Assembly: GCF_016026235.1 (NCBI RefSeq)
Contig: NZ_CP065613.1
Reading direction: 5' to 3' (one strand)
Source: Escherichia coli
GTDB taxonomy: Bacteria > Pseudomonadota > Gammaproteobacteria > Enterobacterales > Enterobacteriaceae
DNA length: 64,000 bases
Shown here in pieces: positions 50,602-64,000 of this stretch. The notes beneath the pieces are model-generated. The model did not search any database and was not told the origin of the DNA. It saw only the letters and a program-made list of their open reading frames with translations. Made by a program: the position numbers and the translations under genes. The stretch's first letter is position 1; the number at the start of each line of letters is the position of its first letter.

Positions 50602-50678
50602 GGAGCGGTAGTTCAGTCGGTTAGAATACCTGCCTGTCACGCAGGGGGTCGCGGGTTCGAGTCCCGTCCGTTCCGCCA
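50602..50678 (+). tRNA. aspU: tRNA-Asp (GTC), distal tRNA of the rRNA operon
   Basis: 77-nt GGAGCGGTAGTTCAGTCGGTTAGAATACCTGCCTGTCACGCAGGGGGTCGCGGGTTCGAGTCCCGTCCGTTCCGCCA. Confidence 0.95.
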
Positions 50679-54491: not shown

Positions 54492-55850
54492 TCAGGAATC
54501 TGGCATGTTGTTGTTTTTCACAAACAACGTCAGCTTATCGCCTGGTTGCAGATTCGCAGTGTCGCTGTTCCAGCGCATCACATCTTTGATGTTCACGCCG
54601 TGGCGTTTAGCAATGCTTGAAAGCGAATCGCCTTTGCGCACACGATACGTAATGCTATCGCTGTTGTTTGCCAGTCGCTGTGCGCTACTGCCTGCACCAA
54701 TCGTCAAACTTTGGCCTGGCTTCAGCTTAGATCCGCGCAGTTTGTTCCACTGCTGCAAATCTTTGGTGCTTACGCCGAGACGTGAAGCGATACTTGAAAG
54801 CGTGTCGCCAGAGCGTACGGTGTAAACACGGCTGTTAAGCGGCGTATTGTCGGCAACCAGCGTCGACTGTACAGCAGCAATTTCGCCTGAAGCCAGAGAT
54901 TCACGCAGTTGATCTGCATGCTTCTTTGGCACCATCACGTATTGCGGACCACTTGCGCCCAGCGTGGAGCCTTTCACGCCAGCGTTGAATGTCTTCAGCT
55001 TGCTGACGGAAATCCCCGCCATATCTGCAACCTTCGCCATTTCAACCGGGCTGCTCAGGTGCACACGCGCCAGAGCACGGCTTTCATCGGTCGTTGGCAG
55101 ACGTACGCCATAACGCTTGCTGTTTTTGAGAATATCACTCAATGCCAGCATTTTAGGCACGTACTGCTTCGTTTCCTGCGGCAACGGTAACGACCAGAAG
55201 TCCGTGGATTTCCCACGCGCTTTGTTCGTTTTAATTGCCTTCATGACCCGACCTTCGCCGCTGTTATAAGCCGCTACGGTCAGAAGCCAGTCGCCGTCAA
55301 ACATTTTGTTCAGACGCTGCATCATGTTCAGCGCGGCAGTTGTTGAAGCAACAACATCGCGACGCGCGTCATAATTGCGGGTCTGTTTCAAACCATAATT
55401 GCGCCCCGTGCTCGGAATGATCTGCCAGATGCCTGCGGCATTGGCGCCAGACGTTGCGTGAGGATCAAAAGCGCTCTCCACTATGGGTAGTAGTACCAGT
55501 TCCATAGGCATGTTACGTTTTTTAACTTGCCCGGCTATCCAGTACATATACGGCTCTGCCCGTAAAGTTACATCGTGGAGATAGCTCTTATTGCGTAAAT
55601 ATTTCTGTTTCTGTTCGCGAATCCGGTCATTTTCCGGAATTCCCATCTTTAGCTCGTCGCCAATGAAAGCCCACAAGTCACCATCTGGCGCGATAGACGT
55701 CCCATCGTCCATCCATCGTGCCTGACTTGTAAACTTTGCTGCTTCCCCTTGACCAGCTGCAGAAAGGCTCTGTGCGTGCTGTTGAACGTTGCCGGTACTC
55801 TGGCAACCCACGAGCAGGACAGAGGCGAGTAATATCGCTTTTGCCTTCAT
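54492..55850 (-). CDS. mltD: membrane-bound lytic murein transglycosylase D
   Basis: 452-aa ORF MKAKAILLASVLLVGCQSTGN... (lipobox); transglycosylase SLT domain and two C-terminal LysM repeats. Confidence 0.9.
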   Translation of the reverse strand: MKAKAILLASVLLVGCQSTGNVQQHAQSLSAAGQGEAAKFTSQARWMDDGTSIAPDGDLWAFIGDELKMGIPENDRIREQKQKYLRNKSYLHDVTLRAEPYMYWIAGQVKKRNMPMELVLLPIVESAFDPHATSGANAAGIWQIIPSTGRNYGLKQTRNYDARRDVVASTTAALNMMQRLNKMFDGDWLLTVAAYNSGEGRVMKAIKTNKARGKSTDFWSLPLPQETKQYVPKMLALSDILKNSKRYGVRLPTTDESRALARVHLSSPVEMAKVADMAGISVSKLKTFNAGVKGSTLGASGPQYVMVPKKHADQLRESLASGEIAAVQSTLVADNTPLNSRVYTVRSGDTLSSIASRLGVSTKDLQQWNKLRGSKLKPGQSLTIGAGSSAQRLANNSDSITYRVRKGDSLSSIAKRHGVNIKDVMRWNSDTANLQPGDKLTLFVKNNNMPDS

Positions 55851-55921
55851 GTGTGTGTCAATAGTTGCTTAAAAGACGACCGATCATAACGGCGAACGGA
55901 GCCGATGACAAGAAAGTTTTA

Positions 55922-56680
<759 letters not shown>

Positions 56681-56710
56681 TTACCTCTCAGTGTGAAACG
56701 GAAGGTTGTG

Positions 56711-57433
56711 ATGAAACCGGCAAGAGTCCCTCAAACTGTCGTGGCTCCTGATTGCTGGGGCGATTTGCCCTGGGGAGAGCTTTATCGCAAGGCGCTGGAG
56801 CGCCAGCTCAACCCGTGGTTCACTAAAATGTATGGTTTTCATCTGCTTAAGATTGGCAATTTAAGCGCAGAAATCAATTGCGAAGCGTGCGCGGTTTCTC
56901 ATCAAGTGAATGTTTCTGCGCAAGGAATGCCCGTCCAGGTGCAGGCGGATCCACTTCATCTTCCTTTTGCCGATAAATCCGTTGATGTTTGTCTACTGGC
57001 ACATACATTGCCGTGGTGCACCGATCCGCATCGTTTATTGCGTGAAGCCGATCGGGTATTGATTGATGATGGCTGGCTGGTGATTAGTGGCTTCAATCCC
57101 ATTAGTTTAATGGGATTACGCAAACTTGTGCCGGTATTGCGAAAAACCTCGCCCTATAACAGCCGGATGTTTACTCTGATGCGGCAACTGGACTGGCTCT
57201 CTTTGTTGAATTTTGAAGTGCTACACGCCAGCCGTTTCCACGTTCTCCCGTGGAATAAACATGGTGGAAAACTATTGAGCGCGCATATTCCTGCGCTTGG
57301 TTGCTTACAACTTATCGTTGCCCGGAAACGGACTATTCCTTTAACGCTCAACCCGATGAAACAGAGCAAAAACAAACCGCGAATTCGCCAGGCGGTCGGC
57401 GCCACCCGGCAATTTCGTAAACCACAGGCTTAA
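56711..57433 (+). CDS. yafS: SAM-dependent methyltransferase-like protein YafS
   Basis: ORF-track frame 56693..57433 trimmed to ATG at 56711 ([31 protein letters not shown]...), 240 aa; start uncertain. Confidence 0.75.
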
Positions 57434-57897
57434 ACTTCGACTTGGTAGCCCGTATCTTCCAGTGTGGGATTCATTGCCGCGGCACGAGCCAGTTCATCGC
57501 AACGTTCGTTTTCTGGATGACCGGCATGGCCTTTTACCCATTCCCATTTGATTTGATGCTGCCCCAGCGCAGCATCAAGACGTTGCCAGAGATCGACATT
57601 TTTTACTGGTTTTTTGTCTGCGGTTTTCCAGCCACGTTTTTTCCAGTTATGGATCCACTGGGTGATACCCTGGCGGACATACTGGCTGTCGGTACTCAAA
57701 ATGACTTCGCAATGTTCTTTTAACGCCTCCAGCGCGACAATAGCGGCCATCAACTCCATGCGGTTGTTGGTGGTGCGGGTGTAGCCAGCGCTAAAAGTTT
57801 TCTCGCGTCCGCGATAGCGTAAAATAGCGCCATAACCCCCAGGTCCGGGATTGCCCAGACACGAACCATCGGTGAAAATTTCTACCTGTTTAAGCAT
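57430..57897 (-). CDS. rnhA: ribonuclease HI
   Basis: ORF-track frame 57430..58008 trimmed to ATG giving 155 aa ([74 protein letters not shown]...). Confidence 0.93.
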
Positions 57898-57961
57898 CTC
57901 TGGTAGACTTCCTGTAATTGAATCGAACTGTAAAACGACAAGTCTGACATAAATGACCGCT

Positions 57962-58693
57962 ATGAGCACTGCAATTACACGCCAGATCGTTCTCGATACC
58001 GAAACCACCGGTATGAACCAGATTGGTGCGCACTATGAAGGCCACAAGATCATTGAGATTGGTGCCGTTGAAGTGGTGAACCGTCGCCTGACGGGCAATA
58101 ACTTCCATGTTTATCTCAAACCCGATCGGCTGGTGGATCCGGAAGCCTTTGGCGTACATGGTATTGCCGATGAATTTTTGCTCGATAAGCCCACGTTTGC
58201 CGAAGTAGCCGATGAGTTCATGGACTATATCCGCGGCGCGGAGTTGGTGATCCATAACGCAGCGTTCGATATCGGCTTTATGGACTACGAGTTCTCGTTG
58301 CTTAAGCGCGATATTCCGAAGACCAATACCTTCTGTAAGGTCACCGATAGCCTTGCGGTGGCGAGGAAAATGTTTCCTGGTAAGCGCAACAGCCTCGATG
58401 CGTTATGTGCCCGCTACGAAATAGATAACAGTAAACGAACGCTACACGGGGCATTACTCGATGCCCAGATCCTTGCGGAAGTTTATCTGGCGATGACCGG
58501 TGGTCAAACGTCGATGGCTTTTGCGATGGAAGGAGAGACACAACAGCAACAAGGTGAAGCAACAATTCAGCGCATTGTACGTCAGGCAAGTAAGTTACGC
58601 GTTGTTTTTGCGACAGATGAAGAGCTTGCAGCACATGAAGCCCGTCTTGATCTGGTGCAGAAGAAAGGCGGAAGCTGCCTCTGGCGAGCATAA
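57962..58693 (+). CDS. dnaQ: DNA polymerase III epsilon subunit (3'-5' proofreading exonuclease)
   Basis: ORF-track frame 57953..58693 trimmed to ATG at 57962 ([39 protein letters not shown]...), 243 aa. Confidence 0.93.
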
Positions 58694-58768
58694 ATACCTG
58701 TGAAAGGCGCTAAAAATAGCGACTTGGGCGATTTTTGCAGCAAACGATTCAAAAGATGAGAAAAACCA

Positions 58769-58797
58769 TTGACGACGGGTGAGGCAATCCGTAATAT
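58769..58797 (+). promoter_or_regulatory. candidate aspV promoter (-35 TTGACG, 17-bp spacer, -10 TAATAT, GC-rich discriminator)
   Basis: TTGACG at 58769..58774 and TAATAT at 58792..58797, about 28 bp upstream of the tRNA 5' end. Confidence 0.5.
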
Positions 58798-58825
58798 TCG
58801 CCTCGTTCCCAACGGAACACAACGC

Positions 58826-58902
58826 GGAGCGGTAGTTCAGTCGGTTAGAATACCTGCCTGTCACGCAGGGGGTCGCGGGTTCGAGTCCCGTCCGTTCCGC
58901 CA
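58826..58902 (+). tRNA. aspV: tRNA-Asp (GTC)
   Basis: 77-nt sequence identical to the aspU copy at 50602..50678; lies directly after dnaQ. Confidence 0.95.
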
Positions 58903-58932
58903 AATTCACCTCATGAAAATGAGGTTCAGAGA

Positions 58933-58962
58933 ACCGCAAGATTTTTAATTTTGCGGTTTTTT
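58933..58962 (+). terminator. rho-independent terminator after aspV
   Basis: ACCGCAA-loop-TTGCGGT followed by TTTTTT; preceded by a 7-bp GAAA tetraloop hairpin (ACCTCAT-GAAA-ATGAGGT, 58907..58924). Confidence 0.6.
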
Positions 58963-59260
58963 GCATTTAAATCCCGCTATTTCTTCGGTCTATGATTTTG
59001 TTATGCTGTAAATGTGTTAATCACATATGGTAGACCATATCATTAATATTTAATCATACTATCGAATCATTCAATTTAAATATATTTGCATGTTATGATT
59101 TTCATTTTTCTATTGATTTAATGAATTTATATTTGCTGTTATTTTTGTTTGTTCTGATTCAAGTGGAGTATATAATTAAAAATCGTTAGCTAAACATTAC
59201 CATGATTATGACAGGCGAGGGAGTGTCCGATTATGAATTTAAGAAGGGTTTGTTGTATAT

Positions 59261-59845
59261 GTGTATTATTCTCGCTGCTTGCAGGATGTGCCTCTTAATT
59301 CTCCCGTTATACTTGTTCAGTCTGGCAGTCGCGCACCGGAAACCATTATGCAGGAGGAGATGAGAAAATATTATACAGTTGCCACATTTTCTGGCATTCC
59401 TGACAGGCAAAAACCTGTAACTTGTAATAAAGACAAAAACAAAGATGAAAGTCTGGATGTTGTAGATGCCGAAAATATGAACTGGATGCAGGCATTACGT
59501 TTTGTTGCGGCAAAAGGCCATCAGAAAGCGATTATTGTTTTCCAGGATACGTTGCAGACAGGAAAATATGACTCTGGATTGAAATCAATAGTTTGGTCAG
59601 ATTATAAAAATCAAAAATTGACTGACACGATGTCACTGCGTTATTTGGTTCGATTCACGCTGGTGGATGTGGCTACAGGTGAGTGGGCTACCTGGTCGCC
59701 TGTGAATTATGAATCGAAAGTGATTTTTCCGCAGATAGGGAATAAAAATTCTGACAGCCTTGATGTGGCAGAACAGCAGATTTCACAACTTAAGCAGAAA
59801 ACGTACGCAGCAGTGGTTAAAGATCTGGTGAATCGCTATCAGTAG
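59261..59845 (+). CDS. yafT: YafT-like protein body ORF; lipoprotein signal peptide lies upstream in a different frame
   Basis: 194-codon ORF (...[55 protein letters not shown]...); upstream ATG at 59233 encodes [21 protein letters not shown] then TAA at 59296 in a different frame. Internal ATGs at 59348 and 59360, the latter just after AGGAGG. Confidence 0.5.
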
Positions 59846-60186
59846 TAAGGTTTTATACCAGACGTTTTAATGGTACTTAGCAAGAAAGAGCATTTTCTTT
59901 TCTATTTATACTCTGGTTCAAGTCTGCTAATTAATTTTACATATATATTTTTTTAGAAGTAGTAAAAAACTTTACTAAAGTTATTTATTGTTCTCTCAAC
60001 ATATAAGCTGTAGTTCGAGTTTTCGGTTGAACTGTCAAAAATACATCATACACATCTATAAAACAGCAGGTACGGTTAATTAAGAATTTTTATTCGTGAT
60101 TAACCGTACTTTATCATTTTATTTTATAATGTTAAATTGCCTTTTTAAAATATAACAATAATGCAGATGAAAAACTCCCAGGTAAC

Positions 60187-60666
60187 TTAGAAAATCCGTT
60201 CACTCCAAAGGCTGTACGCACTGGTTCCGGCGACGCTGTGCTCCCAGTTAATGCTCTCATAGGTAAATGACACAGACTCTTCCGGCTGTCCTGGGCTGTC
60301 GTTAATGGTATGGGGAACGGTAAGGCCGATGTTTGAGATCCGGGCGTTAGTCAGTTTCACCTTGTAGTACGGTTCATTAACACCAAAGCGGTTGGTGCGA
60401 TAGAATACAAAATCACAGGTCAGACATTCATTCTCCGAAATGGCCTTGCCCAGCAGGGGGGAAGATTTGTCCACCGGTTTCGTGATGGTCAGCTCCTGGT
60501 GGTTGACATTCTGCGCCCGGCTCAGACCATGGGACAGTGACGTCACCATGATCTGATCCTGATGTGCAATCTGGGCTTTGTTACCGATGGACGGCATTGA
60601 CGAGCATCCGGATGAAATCAGCCCCTGAAGTTCTCCGTTCAGTGTCAGATAGACGGGATTTGCCAT
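60187..60666 (-). CDS. hcp: type VI secretion tube protein, Hcp family
   Basis: ORF-track frame 60187..61053 trimmed to ATG (complement 60664..60666) preceded by AAGGAGAATAAC; 159 aa MANPVYLTLNGELQGLISSGCSSMPSIGNKAQIAHQDQIMVTSLSHGL...YKVKLTNARISNIG...FTYESINWEHSVAGTSAYSLWSERIF, Hcp-like length and N/C-terminal pattern. Confidence 0.65.
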   Translation of the reverse strand: MANPVYLTLNGELQGLISSGCSSMPSIGNKAQIAHQDQIMVTSLSHGLSRAQNVNHQELTITKPVDKSSPLLGKAISENECLTCDFVFYRTNRFGVNEPYYKVKLTNARISNIGLTVPHTINDSPGQPEESVSFTYESINWEHSVAGTSAYSLWSERIF

Positions 60667-60683
60667 TGTTATTCTCCTTAAAC

Positions 60684-62042
60684 TCAATGGGTCGGAGGGA
60701 CTGGCACGGTGCTGTTGTCCGTTGCCATATCCTGTCCGGTATTTTTCAGCAACAGCCAGCGGCTTAACAGCCCATCCAGCCGTTGGTTGATCTCTTTTGC
60801 TAGCGCCTGTGTGTCCTGATTCTGCGTGCGGGTCTCCTGGTACTGCGTCAGCAGGTACTCCAGTGGAGTTTCCTGATTCAGTAACCGTTCGGCCTGCCAG
60901 GTCACCGTTTTGATATACGAGAGGGTGAAACCCTGTTTCTCCGTCTCCTTTTTCATCATCAGATCCGCAAAATCCCGCAAATTCTGCCGCGCCTGTTGCC
61001 AGCCCTTCATCTGCGGACTGGCTTGCGCCCGGTTTCTCAGCGTGGTGCTCCACATCCGGCTGGCTTCCTGCTGTTGCAGGCTTTCCGGCCAGAGGGTGTC
61101 TGCGGTGCGCATCATCTGCATTCCGGTTTCCAGCGGCTGTAGCGGTGGGGTATCCAGAAGCTGTTGCAGGTACTGTTCATATTCTTTCAGTACCGGTGAT
61201 GCCAGCCAGACGGTGGCGGCTCCCTGTGCGGTATCCCTGACCTGCGTAAGCTGCCGCTGCATCGGGTACGCCTGCCACCACCAGAGTGCAGCGGCGATAA
61301 CGGCAGTACAGGCGGCACCGGCAACAAAACCTTTTACAGTGCTGCCCTGTCTAACGTTGTCGGCGTTATTTGCCACACCGCGCACCTCCACCCGCATTTC
61401 CGGCAGGTCGGGCAGGGGAGGCACGGCTTCCGCTGTGGTGGAAGCCGTGCTTTCCGGCGCATAGACCAGCGTCCGGACCGTGGTCTGTGCCGCCGTATCA
61501 GTACGGTTTCCGGGCTGCGGTTCAAACCGCTTGCGTGTGTTCTGCACAAAATAAAGCAGGTTTTCCACGCGCGGCTGGCGCTTCAGTTCCACCTGCTGGA
61601 GTTTGTCACAGATAAGCTGTAAAGCCCGTTCCGTGCGGTAGAGCAACGGCAGATCATTTTCGGAAAAGGACACCTGCTGGCGCAGGATATTCCCGGTGCG
61701 GGTATTGAACCAGTCCAGCATCTCAGTCCGCGCCGGGCCACCCTGCGGCCAGAATTTATCCCATTCGTGGTTGATCATCGCTGCCAGCAGTTCCGCGCCT
61801 TCGCAGAACCCTGCCAGTCCCTGATTACGGGTACGCGCCAGTGTATAGTAGGTGGCGGTATGCAAATCCACCCCGTTGGCCTTAAAAATCGACAGCGCCA
61901 GCGATTCCACCAGTTTCCAGTTCAGCTCCGGCTGTGACGGGTGATTAGCCTTGTTAATTTCTTCGCGGATGGCGCTGAACTCCGGCAGGGCGCGCGGATC
62001 GCTGCCGGTAACGATAGTTTGAGTCAGTGCGTTGTTGTTCAT
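60684..62042 (-). CDS. T6SS-associated ImpA-N-domain protein (TssA-family, VasL/TagA-like) with central transmembrane segment
   Basis: ORF-track frame 60684..62183 trimmed to ATG at 62042 (MNNNALTQTIVTGSDPRALPEFSAIREEINKANHPSQPELNWKLVESLALSIFKANGVDLHTATYYTLARTRNQGLAGFCEGAELLAAMINHEWDKFWP...); hydrophobic stretch GFVAGAACTAVIAAALWWW; 10 bp after the tssM stop, 17 bp before hcp. Confidence 0.55.
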   Translation of the reverse strand: MNNNALTQTIVTGSDPRALPEFSAIREEINKANHPSQPELNWKLVESLALSIFKANGVDLHTATYYTLARTRNQGLAGFCEGAELLAAMINHEWDKFWPQGGPARTEMLDWFNTRTGNILRQQVSFSENDLPLLYRTERALQLICDKLQQVELKRQPRVENLLYFVQNTRKRFEPQPGNRTDTAAQTTVRTLVYAPESTASTTAEAVPPLPDLPEMRVEVRGVANNADNVRQGSTVKGFVAGAACTAVIAAALWWWQAYPMQRQLTQVRDTAQGAATVWLASPVLKEYEQYLQQLLDTPPLQPLETGMQMMRTADTLWPESLQQQEASRMWSTTLRNRAQASPQMKGWQQARQNLRDFADLMMKKETEKQGFTLSYIKTVTWQAERLLNQETPLEYLLTQYQETRTQNQDTQALAKEINQRLDGLLSRWLLLKNTGQDMATDNSTVPVPPTH

Positions 62043-62052
62043 CACTATCCCC

Positions 62053-64000
62053 TTAATACAATGTATCCGGTAAACGGAACTGGCTGAACAGACCGCCGGT
62101 GAACGGGTTATCTTCGGTATCCACATGCACCCGGTAAACCATCGCGCCGCCGTCCACGTTAAAGCGCACGTTAAAGGTGTCACTGGTTACGTTGGTCAAC
62201 TGGCCCGCGCCGAACAGGCGGAACTGCGCCCACGGTCCACTGAACGCGATACTGCGCGGTGCTCCGCCGCTGGTGCCAATCAGCGTCAGCTTGCTTTCAT
62301 TGCCTTCACGCATGTTGTTCGGCCAGACCAGATGGGCGGTATAGTTGCGTCCCTGGCTGTAGTCCACTAACTGGCCGTCCAGGTTAAGTACGCTGCGCCG
62401 CTTATTGCCGGAAAGCGATACGGTTTCCACGGCAAACTGTGCGCCCAGTCCGTTCTGCTGGCTAAAGAAGATGTCGCGGATTTTCTGTGCGGTATCCAGT
62501 TGTTGCCGGATATCTTCACGGATCAGCACTCTGCCGTCGTCGCCAAAGGTCAGATCGTTTTCCAGGAACAGTCGCAGGTTGTCCCTGTAGAACGAGTCCA
62601 GAATGCCATCCGGTTTAAAGAAGCGCTCAAACGCATCCAGTGAGGCATCCTGTGGGGCGCGTGGATTAAACGGATAGTTACCGGCAAGCTGTTCGTTGAA
62701 GGGTTTCACCACATTGTCGCGCCAGTCCACTTCCATGTAATGAACGGCTTCCACCATCACTACATGCCAGGCCTGATCCGCCAGCTTGCCCACCCAGCGG
62801 TTAAGAGGCGCAGGCAGGGTTTTTGCCATCTGACGGGTGGCGAAGATTGGATCGCTGCTGTTTTGATCCAGCCGTAGCTGTACTGCTTTCAGCGCCGATT
62901 TCCCAGACACTGGCGAGTTCTGAATCGCCAGCAGGTAACGGTGCAGCTCGGTCAGTTGCTGGTACACGGCCTGTAGCGTACTCGCCTTGTCCTTTTGCTC
63001 CTCCAGTGCGCTATTTTCCGGCGCGAGCTCATGTCCCAGCCGGGATAACAGGCGGTAATCCATCTCATTTATCGCCGCTTCCCTCGCCTTATCATCCAGT
63101 TTGCCGGAGAGCGTCAGCGCGTGTGTATTATCGCGCAGCGCCGTCAGCGCACGCTGGAATGGCTGATCGCCGCTGATAATCTGCTCCAGCGCGTCGGTCA
63201 GCACCGGCATGGCCTCATAGTCACGGACGTTGAGATTATCCATTCCGGCACGCCATGTAGCGGTATAGTCACTGAGGTACTGTTCAGTGATATGGCGCTG
63301 GATCTCTTCACGGTCGGCCTCGCTGTAGGCGACGCTTTGCGTCAGGTTCAGCACCCACGAATCCAGCGCGGTCAACTCAACGAGACCGTCGTGTTGTTTG
63401 ATAAAATAGCTTTGCAGGCCATAGCGGGTGAGAAACTGCGGGATCACCAGTTTTTCATCATTACCGGCGACGAACACGTTGTCGAAGGTGGGACCAACCT
63501 GGTCGCGCAAATTCAAATCGGCGGGCAACACGCTTAATGCTTTGGTGCGCAGGGTCTGGTAGACACGCTGGTATATCGGCAGTTTGCTCAGTTCATGTTG
63601 CGCATTAATGACCGCTTTATCATAGGGTGTCCAGCGGCTGATGGCGTCGCTGTCGCCGCTCTGGCGCTGCGCGTGCCAGTCGGTGTGTTCCAGCGCATAG
63701 TCCAGATGTGCCATCAGTTGCGCCTGAATATCACGCTGGCCGTGAAATTCATTGCTCCAGCGCCGCGCCATGTACTGTTTTACCGCCTCGTTGTTGCGCC
63801 CACTTTTGTCTTCCATCATGCGCACTACGCGCAGCACGGCGAGTTTTTCTTCACTCTCAGGCGGGGCATTGTTCAGATCCCGGATCAGGCCGTTCATTAA
63901 CGAGGGGAGATAACGCTGCTCAAGAAGCTGAATGTAGGTTTGTTCCACATATGACCCTACGCGGACGCCCTGGTACAATCCCATATCCGCCAGAAAACCG
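62053..64000 (-). CDS. tssM: type VI secretion membrane protein TssM (IcmF-like), C-terminal part; gene continues beyond window end
   Basis: More than 640 codons open on the minus strand from the window edge to the stop at 62053; size, the downstream ImpA-like and Hcp genes, and recalled IcmF C-terminal character support TssM; not verified by search. Confidence 0.55.
   Translation of the reverse strand, partial: GFLADMGLYQGVRVGSYVEQTYIQLLEQRYLPSLMNGLIRDLNNAPPESEEKLAVLRVVRMMEDKSGRNNEAVKQYMARRWSNEFHGQRDIQAQLMAHLDYALEHTDWHAQRQSGDSDAISRWTPYDKAVINAQHELSKLPIYQRVYQTLRTKALSVLPADLNLRDQVGPTFDNVFVAGNDEKLVIPQFLTRYGLQSYFIKQHDGLVELTALDSWVLNLTQSVAYSEADREEIQRHITEQYLSDYTATWRAGMDNLNVRDYEAMPVLTDALEQIISGDQPFQRALTALRDNTHALTLSGKLDDKAREAAINEMDYRLLSRLGHELAPENSALEEQKDKASTLQAVYQQLTELHRYLLAIQNSPVSGKSALKAVQLRLDQNSSDPIFATRQMAKTLPAPLNRWVGKLADQAWHVVMVEAVHYMEVDWRDNVVKPFNEQLAGNYPFNPRAPQDASLDAFERFFKPDGILDSFYRDNLRLFLENDLTFGDDGRVLIREDIRQQLDTAQKIRDIFFSQQNGLGAQFAVETVSLSGNKRRSVLNLDGQLVDYSQGRNYTAHLVWPNNMREGNESKLTLIGTSGGAPRSIAFSGPWAQFRLFGAGQLTNVTSDTFNVRFNVDGGAMVYRVHVDTEDNPFTGGLFSQFRLPDTLY

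Follow-up and report, generated by a model that had tools for sequence, protein, structure and literature searches.

The segment 58903-60186 of a 64,000-nucleotide stretch of Escherichia coli DNA (NCBI RefSeq assembly GCF_016026235.1, contig NZ_CP065613.1), here called the window, follows directly on the CCA end of the tRNA-Asp gene aspV. It is very probably the aspV-proximal end of the known E. coli island that lies between aspV and yafV and carries a type VI secretion system (T6SS), the island known as pathogenicity island (PAI) I of LF82 and as the third T6SS of enteroaggregative E. coli (EAEC) 042, and present in UTI89 and avian pathogenic E. coli (APEC). On this reading, which we hold as a whole with good confidence, the end is made of four pieces, the island carries no integrase and it has been kept by vertical descent. 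Counted from the tRNA, the pieces would be an island-borne intrinsic aspV terminator replacing the ancestral one, an AT-rich promoter and leader for yafT, a yafT gene inactivated by a 173-bp deletion between 9-nt repeats, and an AT-rich spacer holding the terminator of the convergent genes yafT and hcp.

Most of the setting is already published: the T6SS island at aspV, aspV as a hot spot, the lack of obvious repeats at such islands and the silent yafT locus of K-12. What is new is minor, namely the strain-specific yafT deletion and the details of the junction. The gain is one of precision (the exact junction at 58903-58908, the absence of integrase and attachment (att) site judged beside a positive control at the same tRNA, the roles of the spacers, and K-12 as a decayed sister), and it matters little beyond correct annotation.

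The left boundary of the island

The gene preceding the segment is a tRNA-Asp(GTC) called with ARAGORN and Rfam. It sits downstream of dnaQ, and the order rrnH, aspU, dkgB ... rnhA, dnaQ, tRNA-Asp is annotated in every relative retrieved, which identifies it as aspV.

Where does the core genome end? In 757 of the 5,426 complete E. coli genomes used for all population counts, the site is empty: aspV is followed by 98 bp and then by the yafV stop codon, and the similarity of these genomes to the window stops at 58906-58908. Identity to K-12, taken in 100-nt bins, is 96-100% over 55000-58899, except for 93-95% at 57200-57599, and from 58903 onwards it is 64-89%, with 82, 64 and 70% in the first bins past the tRNA. 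When nine aspV alleles were set side by side, all that their trailers had in common after CCA was (A/C)(T)ATTCA, beyond which the types diverge. Sequence comparison thus confirms 58903-58908 as the true boundary between core and accessory DNA, 4-6 nt past the aspV CCA, in agreement with the earlier note on this DNA, which had the accessory genes begin at the 3' end of aspV. In P4-type islands at aspV, the att core (CGTCCGTTCCGCCA+nTATTC) has its 3' edge at this same place.

Presence at the locus varies, with the empty site in 757, this island allele in 579 and the yafT region in 4,144 of the 5,426 genomes. Empty-site strains have a different aspV terminator hairpin and a trailer resembling that of aspU, and their 98-bp spacer is not a subset of the island sequence.

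The lower-identity patch at 57200-57599, whose surroundings are 98-100% identical, is found in the yafS/rnhA region, 1.3 kb short of aspV; it may have come from recombination that extended from the aspV hot spot into the core. A possible scar was considered and rejected: the empty-site sequence GCCATATTCACC, 88 nt after the tRNA, is like the tRNA-end/island junction GCCAAATTCACC, and 47 of 5,000 shuffles for the window and 228 of 5,000 for K-12 scored as well, too weak for a likeness noticed post hoc.

Base composition across the junction

The earlier note described an abrupt shift to AT-rich sequence right after the tRNA-Asp CCA, and the sliding-window plot of G+C content (GC) is indeed non-uniform across the junction, falling from about 0.50 to 0.22-0.31. 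In 200-nt windows, GC is 0.47-0.53 over 58000-58999; counted from the tRNA it is 0.295, 0.225 and 0.31 (58900-59299), then 0.38-0.43 in the body of yafT, 0.265-0.295 at 59800-60199 and 0.50-0.635 from 60200 on. The segment as a whole has a GC of 0.34 against 0.513 for the window upstream of 58903, and of the 1,255 sliding 1,284-nt windows laid across the whole window the one with the lowest GC starts exactly at 58901. By parts, GC is 0.288 in spacer 1 (between aspV and yafT), 0.409 in the yafT remnant, 0.267 in spacer 2 (between yafT and hcp) and 0.561 in the T6SS part at 60187-64000.

To call the whole an AT-rich island, as the earlier note did, goes too far. AT-richness is limited to 58903-60186, the first 1.3 kb; hcp, vasL and tssM have a GC of 0.52-0.58, as against 0.51 for the window, and the effector end of the island in a relative has 0.29-0.45. 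A second sharp dip, to 0.30-0.37, occurs at 55900-56300, around the spacer that separates mltD from gloB and the gloB 3' end. This is core DNA, 98-99% identical to K-12, so low GC alone is no island marker here.

The whole island in close relatives

The window ends at 64000, and the island beyond that point is known from the sequences of relatives. The nearest complete genomes over 58903-64000 are FDAARGOS_943 (99.9% identical) and AHM8C212RI (98.6%), in which the island runs from aspV to yafV over 38.0 and 43.4 kb, respectively. The order in these relatives is yafT; a 15-gene core operon from tssB to hcp, read toward aspV; an AT-rich divergent region; then hcp, vgrG and variable effector modules, with remnants of the insertion sequence (IS) ISAs1. 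In a relative, the divergent region is the tssB/hcp promoter region, with a GC of 0.30-0.38, about 16 kb past the window end. The right junction falls within the last four codons of yafV, and the ancestral 98-bp spacer was not found at the yafV end of the relatives' islands.

In the window, the operon ends tssM-vasL-hcp toward aspV. Spacer 2 and hcp are 93.7-94.7% identical to those of UTI89 and EAEC 042 at aspV; together, the spacer and this hcp allele occur in 579 genomes, and in only 52 are they at least 99% identical to the window, which marks a minority subgroup.

The T6SS in the FDAARGOS_943 lineage is probably inactive, since the island tssC is split by IS21 and a vgrG is truncated by IS600 (L015 26769-30388).

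Search for an integrase and attachment-site repeats

No copy of the aspV 3' end was found in 58903-64000, whether as a 25-mer with up to 3 mismatches, as a 16-mer with up to 2, or as any 10-mer of the last 45 nt. These mismatch-tolerant searches uphold the earlier note, which had seen no such repeat there; elsewhere in the window a single copy exists, in the upstream paralogue aspU (50602-50678). The note had further supposed that the other boundary of the island and any integrase would be found beyond the window, and the downstream search that it called for was run in the full islands of the two nearest relatives. The boundary does lie there, at yafV, 38-43 kb away in those genomes. An integrase does not: none, and no remnant of one, is annotated in the FDAARGOS_943 and AHM8C212RI islands, and tblastn with an aspV-specific P4-type integrase gave nothing at E<=1 in either, the same query recovering the positive control integrase. 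Two integrase queries were used in all. Neither whole island contains a repeat of the aspV 3' end above chance (16-mer with up to 3 mismatches, 10-mers of the last 45 nt); loose patterns matched one 3-mismatch site in vgrG, on the opposite strand in both islands, plus single 10-mers, which is the chance level. As read from these relatives, the integrase and the att repeat are absent from the island and not merely out of view. Having neither an integrase nor a duplicated tRNA 3' end, the island today is not a self-mobile integrative element.

The positive control is a 29.6-kb P4-type island at aspV in strain 2017.09.02CC. From a full aspV it carries DUF4942, CbtA/YeeU, a restriction-modification system, IS100 and, as its last gene, a tyrosine integrase with the domains Arm-DNA-bind_3, Phage_int_M and Phage_integrase. 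About 175 nt past the integrase gene comes the 14-nt repeat CGTCCGTTCCGCCA (19/20 nt), followed by the ancestral trailer ATATTCAGAAAGCCCG... A related island lies beside aspV in CFT073. The integrase and repeat of 2017.09.02CC establish aspV as a genuine att site, and real integration there leaves a signature that the T6SS island lacks.

A different T6SS cluster, ImpA-tssG-tssF-tssE-tagJ-tagK, which we take to be SPI-6-like (SPI, Salmonella pathogenicity island), is present in 2017.09.02CC and Rb-50. It follows the ancestral terminator and not the tRNA end. The aspU-like trailer is kept both at the right attachment site (attR) of the integrase island and ahead of the Rb-50 T6SS, and it therefore represents the ancestral state. 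By these comparisons, at least three unrelated kinds of insert use the aspV interval.

Terminators, leader and spacers

Two hairpins, at 58927-58963 and 60068-60111, show the combination expected of an intrinsic terminator, a stable hairpin with a U-run at the end of a transcription unit. A simple consensus scan for terminators missed both because of their long stems and A-U pairs; folds were instead judged by z score against shuffled sequences, 200 of them for the aspV terminator. That terminator, at 58908-58963, lies on the island side of the junction and is conserved in K-12. The hairpin in spacer 2 has 18-nt arms and U-rich tails on both strands (z = -6.4 on the + strand, -4.6 on the - strand), and could terminate transcription in both directions.

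Ahead of yafT, all nine loci examined, from seven genera, have a perfect TATAAT, 55-67 nt from the ATG; in the window it falls between the aspV terminator and the gene. As a conserved motif of the island end this is all there is: compared with E. coli, the tRNA-to-yafT spacers of Lelliottia and Hafnia share only this yafT -10 element. A permissive Rfam scan of 58600-60400 returned no RNA besides the tRNA. On its sequence features, spacer 1 is made up of the aspV terminator and the yafT promoter, spacer 2 is a convergent terminator region, and neither is a T6SS promoter.

The coordinates of all features are collected in Table 1.

Table 1. Features at the aspV end of the island and at related loci (coordinates without prefix are window positions; those with an L number belong to loci of other genomes)
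Feature	Position	Strand	Evidence
dnaQ, last core protein gene before the junction	57953..58693	+	open reading frame (ORF); annotated dnaQ at matching position in relatives; 96-100% identical to K-12
Promoter-like site upstream of aspV: TTGACG, 17 nt, TAATAT	58769..58797	+	consensus match only
aspV, tRNA-Asp, anticodon GTC, CCA-ended	58826..58902	+	ARAGORN; Rfam RF00005, 67.7 bits
Left junction to the base; shared with the empty-site allele (ATATTCA) as far as AATTCA	58903..58908	.	BLAST end points 58906-58908; nine-allele trailer comparison
aspV intrinsic terminator (predicted), RNA hairpin 58908-58925, then RNA hairpin 58927-58963 with a U-run (U6) behind it	58908..58963	+	fold -28.8 kcal/mol, z = -7.9, 0/200 shuffles as good
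AT-rich yafT promoter/leader (predicted), GC ~0.27, perfect TATAAT at 59171-59176	58964..59232	+	GC; hexamer conserved across loci
yafT 5' remnant: signal peptide and lipobox, then premature TAA	59233..59298	+	sequence; alignment with intact yafT
Deletion junction, sole surviving copy of the 9-nt repeat TGTGCCTCT	59287..59295	.	alignment with intact alleles, columns 468-640
yafT 3' remnant, no longer in the frame set by the ATG; matches ~residues 80-261 of YafT (261 aa, Pfam PF25851)	59299..59845	+	ORF 59261-59845; alignments
AT-rich spacer 2, GC 0.267, separating yafT (+) from hcp (-), which converge on it	59846..60186	.	GC, gene positions
hcp/tssD, last gene of the T6SS core operon	60187..60666	-	PF05638 1.9e-24; TIGR03344 9.3e-61; operon order in relatives
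vasL, ImpA_N and VasL domains	60684..62042	-	PF12486 7.8e-25; PF06812 1e-20
tssM, 3' part; gene runs past the window end	62053..64000	-	ORF; annotated tssM in relatives
yafT-first T6SS clusters by a tRNA gene in Lelliottia, Enterobacter and Hafnia	L013 7513-9441; L021 3956-8837; L011 6830-10166		
P4-type island / T6SS inserts at aspV	L016 18617-20060 and L018 10420-10496 (2017.09.02CC); L017 5943-7197 (Rb-50)		

yafT, a pseudogene in this strain

Intact yafT in the relatives is a gene for a 261-aa lipoprotein; the full remnant in the window spans 59233-59845. Between the two TGTGCCTCT copies of intact alleles, 173 bp are missing here. The loss shifts the frame, which therefore stops at a TAA after the lipobox and leaves the remaining 547 nt out of frame. 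It also removes the most conserved motif of the family, LTDKDxxGNETTLxVSEEDIQAAL. Judged from these alignments, yafT is a pseudogene in this strain. The top genome matches cross the deletion point in two pieces (304 versus 131 nt; 5,270 versus 5,098 nt), none of the 5,426 complete genomes (0/5,426) crosses it in one piece, and yafT is intact in FDAARGOS_943. The 173-bp deletion could thus be used as a strain marker. A cluster of 172-aa YafT proteins (P0090) was tried as a further case of the same deletion and rejected, its contig having an intact 5' end and a different, later disruption.

A local search of Pfam, NCBIfam and PDB sequences gave the YafT family no assignment; what there is comes from the precomputed PF25851 'YafT' label and a match at the level of the fold. 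The precomputed tables list PF25851 YafT homologues in E. albertii, E. fergusonii, Citrobacter, Pseudocitrobacter, Salmonella, Enterobacter, Lelliottia, Hafnia and Buttiauxella. Their neighbourhoods repeat the arrangement of the window in several genera: in Lelliottia yafT adjoins tRNA-Phe and is convergent to hcp-vasL-tssM; Enterobacter has it close to tRNA-Phe, with hcp-tssM as its convergent neighbour; and in Hafnia some 1.1 kb separate it from an rrn-distal tRNA-Asp upstream, hcp-vasL again being convergent. In Salmonella it stands beside Rhs/VgrG genes. By this conserved context yafT belongs to the T6SS block.

Could YafT itself be part of the secretion system? We think it unlikely that it is an unrecognised accessory outer-membrane lipoprotein of this T6SS lineage. 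The idea arises because yafT is terminal and convergent to hcp in Escherichia, Lelliottia, Enterobacter and Hafnia, because the TATAAT is kept in seven genera, and because the structure model, of medium confidence, has an LptE/PelC-like fold, a fold known from lipoproteins that form plugs or rings at outer-membrane channels. If it were true, the silent domain at the island edge would control a T6SS component of the cell envelope, and the loss of yafT in this strain would be a functional change.

Probable silencing at the island edge

In K-12, the yafT locus is a transcriptionally silent extended protein-occupancy domain (tsEPOD), which silences an inserted lac-gfp reporter; the silencing is lifted when the domain is replaced (PMC4191405; PMC9561378). 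H-NS binding co-localises with domains of this kind (PMC4390576), and the allelic aspV T6SS of enterohaemorrhagic E. coli (EHEC) is de-repressed in an hns mutant (PMC5363993). The segment in the window shares two features with a tsEPOD: it is AT-rich (0.34 versus 0.51, the lowest of 1,255 windows) and 64-89% identical to the K-12 tsEPOD locus. From homology and composition, binding of H-NS-type proteins to 58903-60186 is plausible, and the yafT segment is probably coated by such nucleoid proteins like its K-12 homologue.

The earlier note saw in the AT-rich spacers targets through which H-NS would silence the T6SS. The first half of this proposal is plausible in view of the K-12 tsEPOD and the H-NS effect in EHEC; the second half does not stand, as neither spacer holds a T6SS promoter and hcp comes last in an operon of 15 genes. 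With spacer 1 consisting of a terminator and the yafT promoter, and spacer 2 lying between convergent 3' ends, they are not sites of T6SS silencing. Coating would instead silence yafT, together with read-through and spurious transcription at the island edge, and not the T6SS promoters.

K-12 as a decayed sister island

Between aspV and yafV, K-12 has the same terminator, a homologous AT-rich leader, yafT (82% aa), ykfM, a truncated gene, an ISAs1 fragment and then yafV. The intact counterpart is found in the Shiga toxin-producing E. coli (STEC) strain STEC1587, whose sister allele reads aspV-yafT-ykfM-(304-aa gene)-hcp-vasL-tssM. The match of K-12 to STEC1587, at 95.7%, breaks off within the 304-aa gene before hcp, and from there K-12 continues with the ISAs1 fragment. 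By this alignment K-12 is a deletion remnant of a sister T6SS island, and it is therefore unfit as an island-free reference. The earlier note had proposed the K-12 gene set as a refuting control; K-12 does lack the T6SS, but it keeps a homologous leader and yafT, so that it offers no clean negative control.

The STEC1587-type allele is well separated from the window in the T6SS genes themselves (Hcp 56% aa, VasL 73% aa, tssM/vasL DNA ~75%). At its left end, STEC1587 is a mosaic (L008 4001-5316 compared with window 58702-59848), with a leader of the window type (96.8%) and a YafT of the K-12 type (99.2% aa), which indicates that the left end has undergone homologous exchange, with a breakpoint there, close to the start of yafT.

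The ykfM and truncated yafU of K-12 (L002 9453-10298; STEC1587 L008 5453-6856) are what is left of two genes that form a module immediately downstream of hcp in the sister island. There the module encodes a 304-aa protein and a 159-aa membrane protein, YkfM, and their position suggests an effector/immunity pair linked to Hcp.

How the island may have arrived and been kept

On the favoured account, the island would pass down by vertical inheritance, be swapped between strains by homologous recombination in the core genes on either side and inside its left end, and lose DNA by IS-associated deletions, as in K-12. Several points weigh against this account or its parts. The right end of this strain's island, beyond position 64000, is placed from the relatives; the case against an integrase is built on annotation and on two integrase queries run by tblastn; H-NS coating of this allele is deduced from homology and composition; and yafT occurs away from a T6SS in Citrobacter amalonaticus, where it is on its own, and in E. 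fergusonii, where its neighbours are immunity-like genes.

How else could the segment be explained? The segment is adjacent to a tRNA gene, its presence is variable, aspV is a real P4-type att site and the junction falls at the edge of the att core, all of which would suit a classical integrative island with its integrase and attR just beyond the window. This is extremely unlikely, however, as the two nearest full islands contain no integrase, no remnant and no repeat of the tRNA 3' end, and the ancestral trailer that follows attR in a real integration is absent at their yafV end. It is also very unlikely that there is no island edge here at all, with yafT and its AT-rich flanks being ancestral core, the empty genomes secondary deletions, and the AT-richness that of intergenic DNA and a lipoprotein gene. 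The yafT region is widespread (4,144 of 5,426 genomes, K-12 included) and the core has its own AT dip at about 55900-56300, as such an explanation would have it. Yet the empty-site spacer is not a subset of the island, and its aspU-like trailer and terminator, found also at the attR of the integrase island and in Rb-50, mark it as the ancestral state. Moreover, yafT travels with hcp-vasL-tssM to other chromosomal sites in other genera, and its alleles differ by 15-20% as against 0-4% in the flanking core DNA.

A fossil integrative element is a possibility that deserves to be taken seriously, if tentatively. An aspV-specific integrase would have delivered yafT and the T6SS, and a later deletion at the yafV end would have taken away the integrase, attR, the ancestral trailer and the last yafV codons; the right junction inside the last four yafV codons fits such a deletion. 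The island arm starts with CCA+(n)TATTCA, within 1 nt of where P4-type arms start, and K-12 has CTATTC, like the left attachment sites (attL) of CFT073 and 2017.09.02CC, and not the ancestral ATATTC. Also, yafT-first T6SS clusters adjoin tRNA genes in three other genera. However, the aspU trailer too begins with C, and CTATTC may be an old variant of the tRNA-Asp trailer, which makes it weak evidence for arrival by an integrase. The tRNA terminator and yafT are 300-1,000 nt apart in Lelliottia and Hafnia, the DNA between them being unrelated, and any integrative element would have left no remnant to test.

Comparison with known systems

T6SS islands at aspV have been described in LF82 (PAI I, 35 kb, GC 50.1%), 536, UTI89, S88 and APEC O1 (PMC2941450), and clusters such as Ec042-0210-0226 of EAEC 042 have been placed at the same tRNA (PMC2808357; PMC2941450). 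The window shares with the islands of LF82, EAEC 042, UTI89, 536, S88 and APEC O1 the dnaQ-aspV left flank and the order hcp-vasL-tssM. It differs from them in the frameshifting 173-bp deletion in yafT and in belonging to the minority spacer-hcp subgroup.

The 37-kb T6SS of EHEC EDL933 occupies the same locus and has the same type of cluster, with vasK, clpV, dotU and hcp (PMC5363993); the STEC1587 allele has the same hcp-vasL-tssM order. This EHEC/STEC-type allele is nevertheless an allelic form that megablast with the window did not detect, and H-NS repression was shown for the T6SS genes of that allele. The K-12 interval (yafT, ykfM, yafU', ISAs1 remnant yafF) resembles the window in its terminator, its leader, a yafT 64-89% identical at the nt level and the same start base after CCA, but it has no T6SS, and the sister allele from which it derives has ykfM and the 304-aa gene between yafT and hcp, where the window has only a 341-bp spacer.

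In Salmonella, aspV has likewise been called a hot spot, and SPI-20 was reported there without obvious direct repeats (PMC2907695). SPI-6 and SPI-20 are like the present island in being T6SS islands beside aspV, and unlike it in belonging to other T6SS lineages with other gene orders. The P4-type islands, namely PAI-aspV of CFT073 and the island of 2017.09.02CC, use the same tRNA, and the point after CCA+nTATTC at which their arms begin is the same. A tyrosine integrase, a 14-nt (19/20 nt) direct repeat and the ancestral trailer go with them, whereas the T6SS island is without all three.

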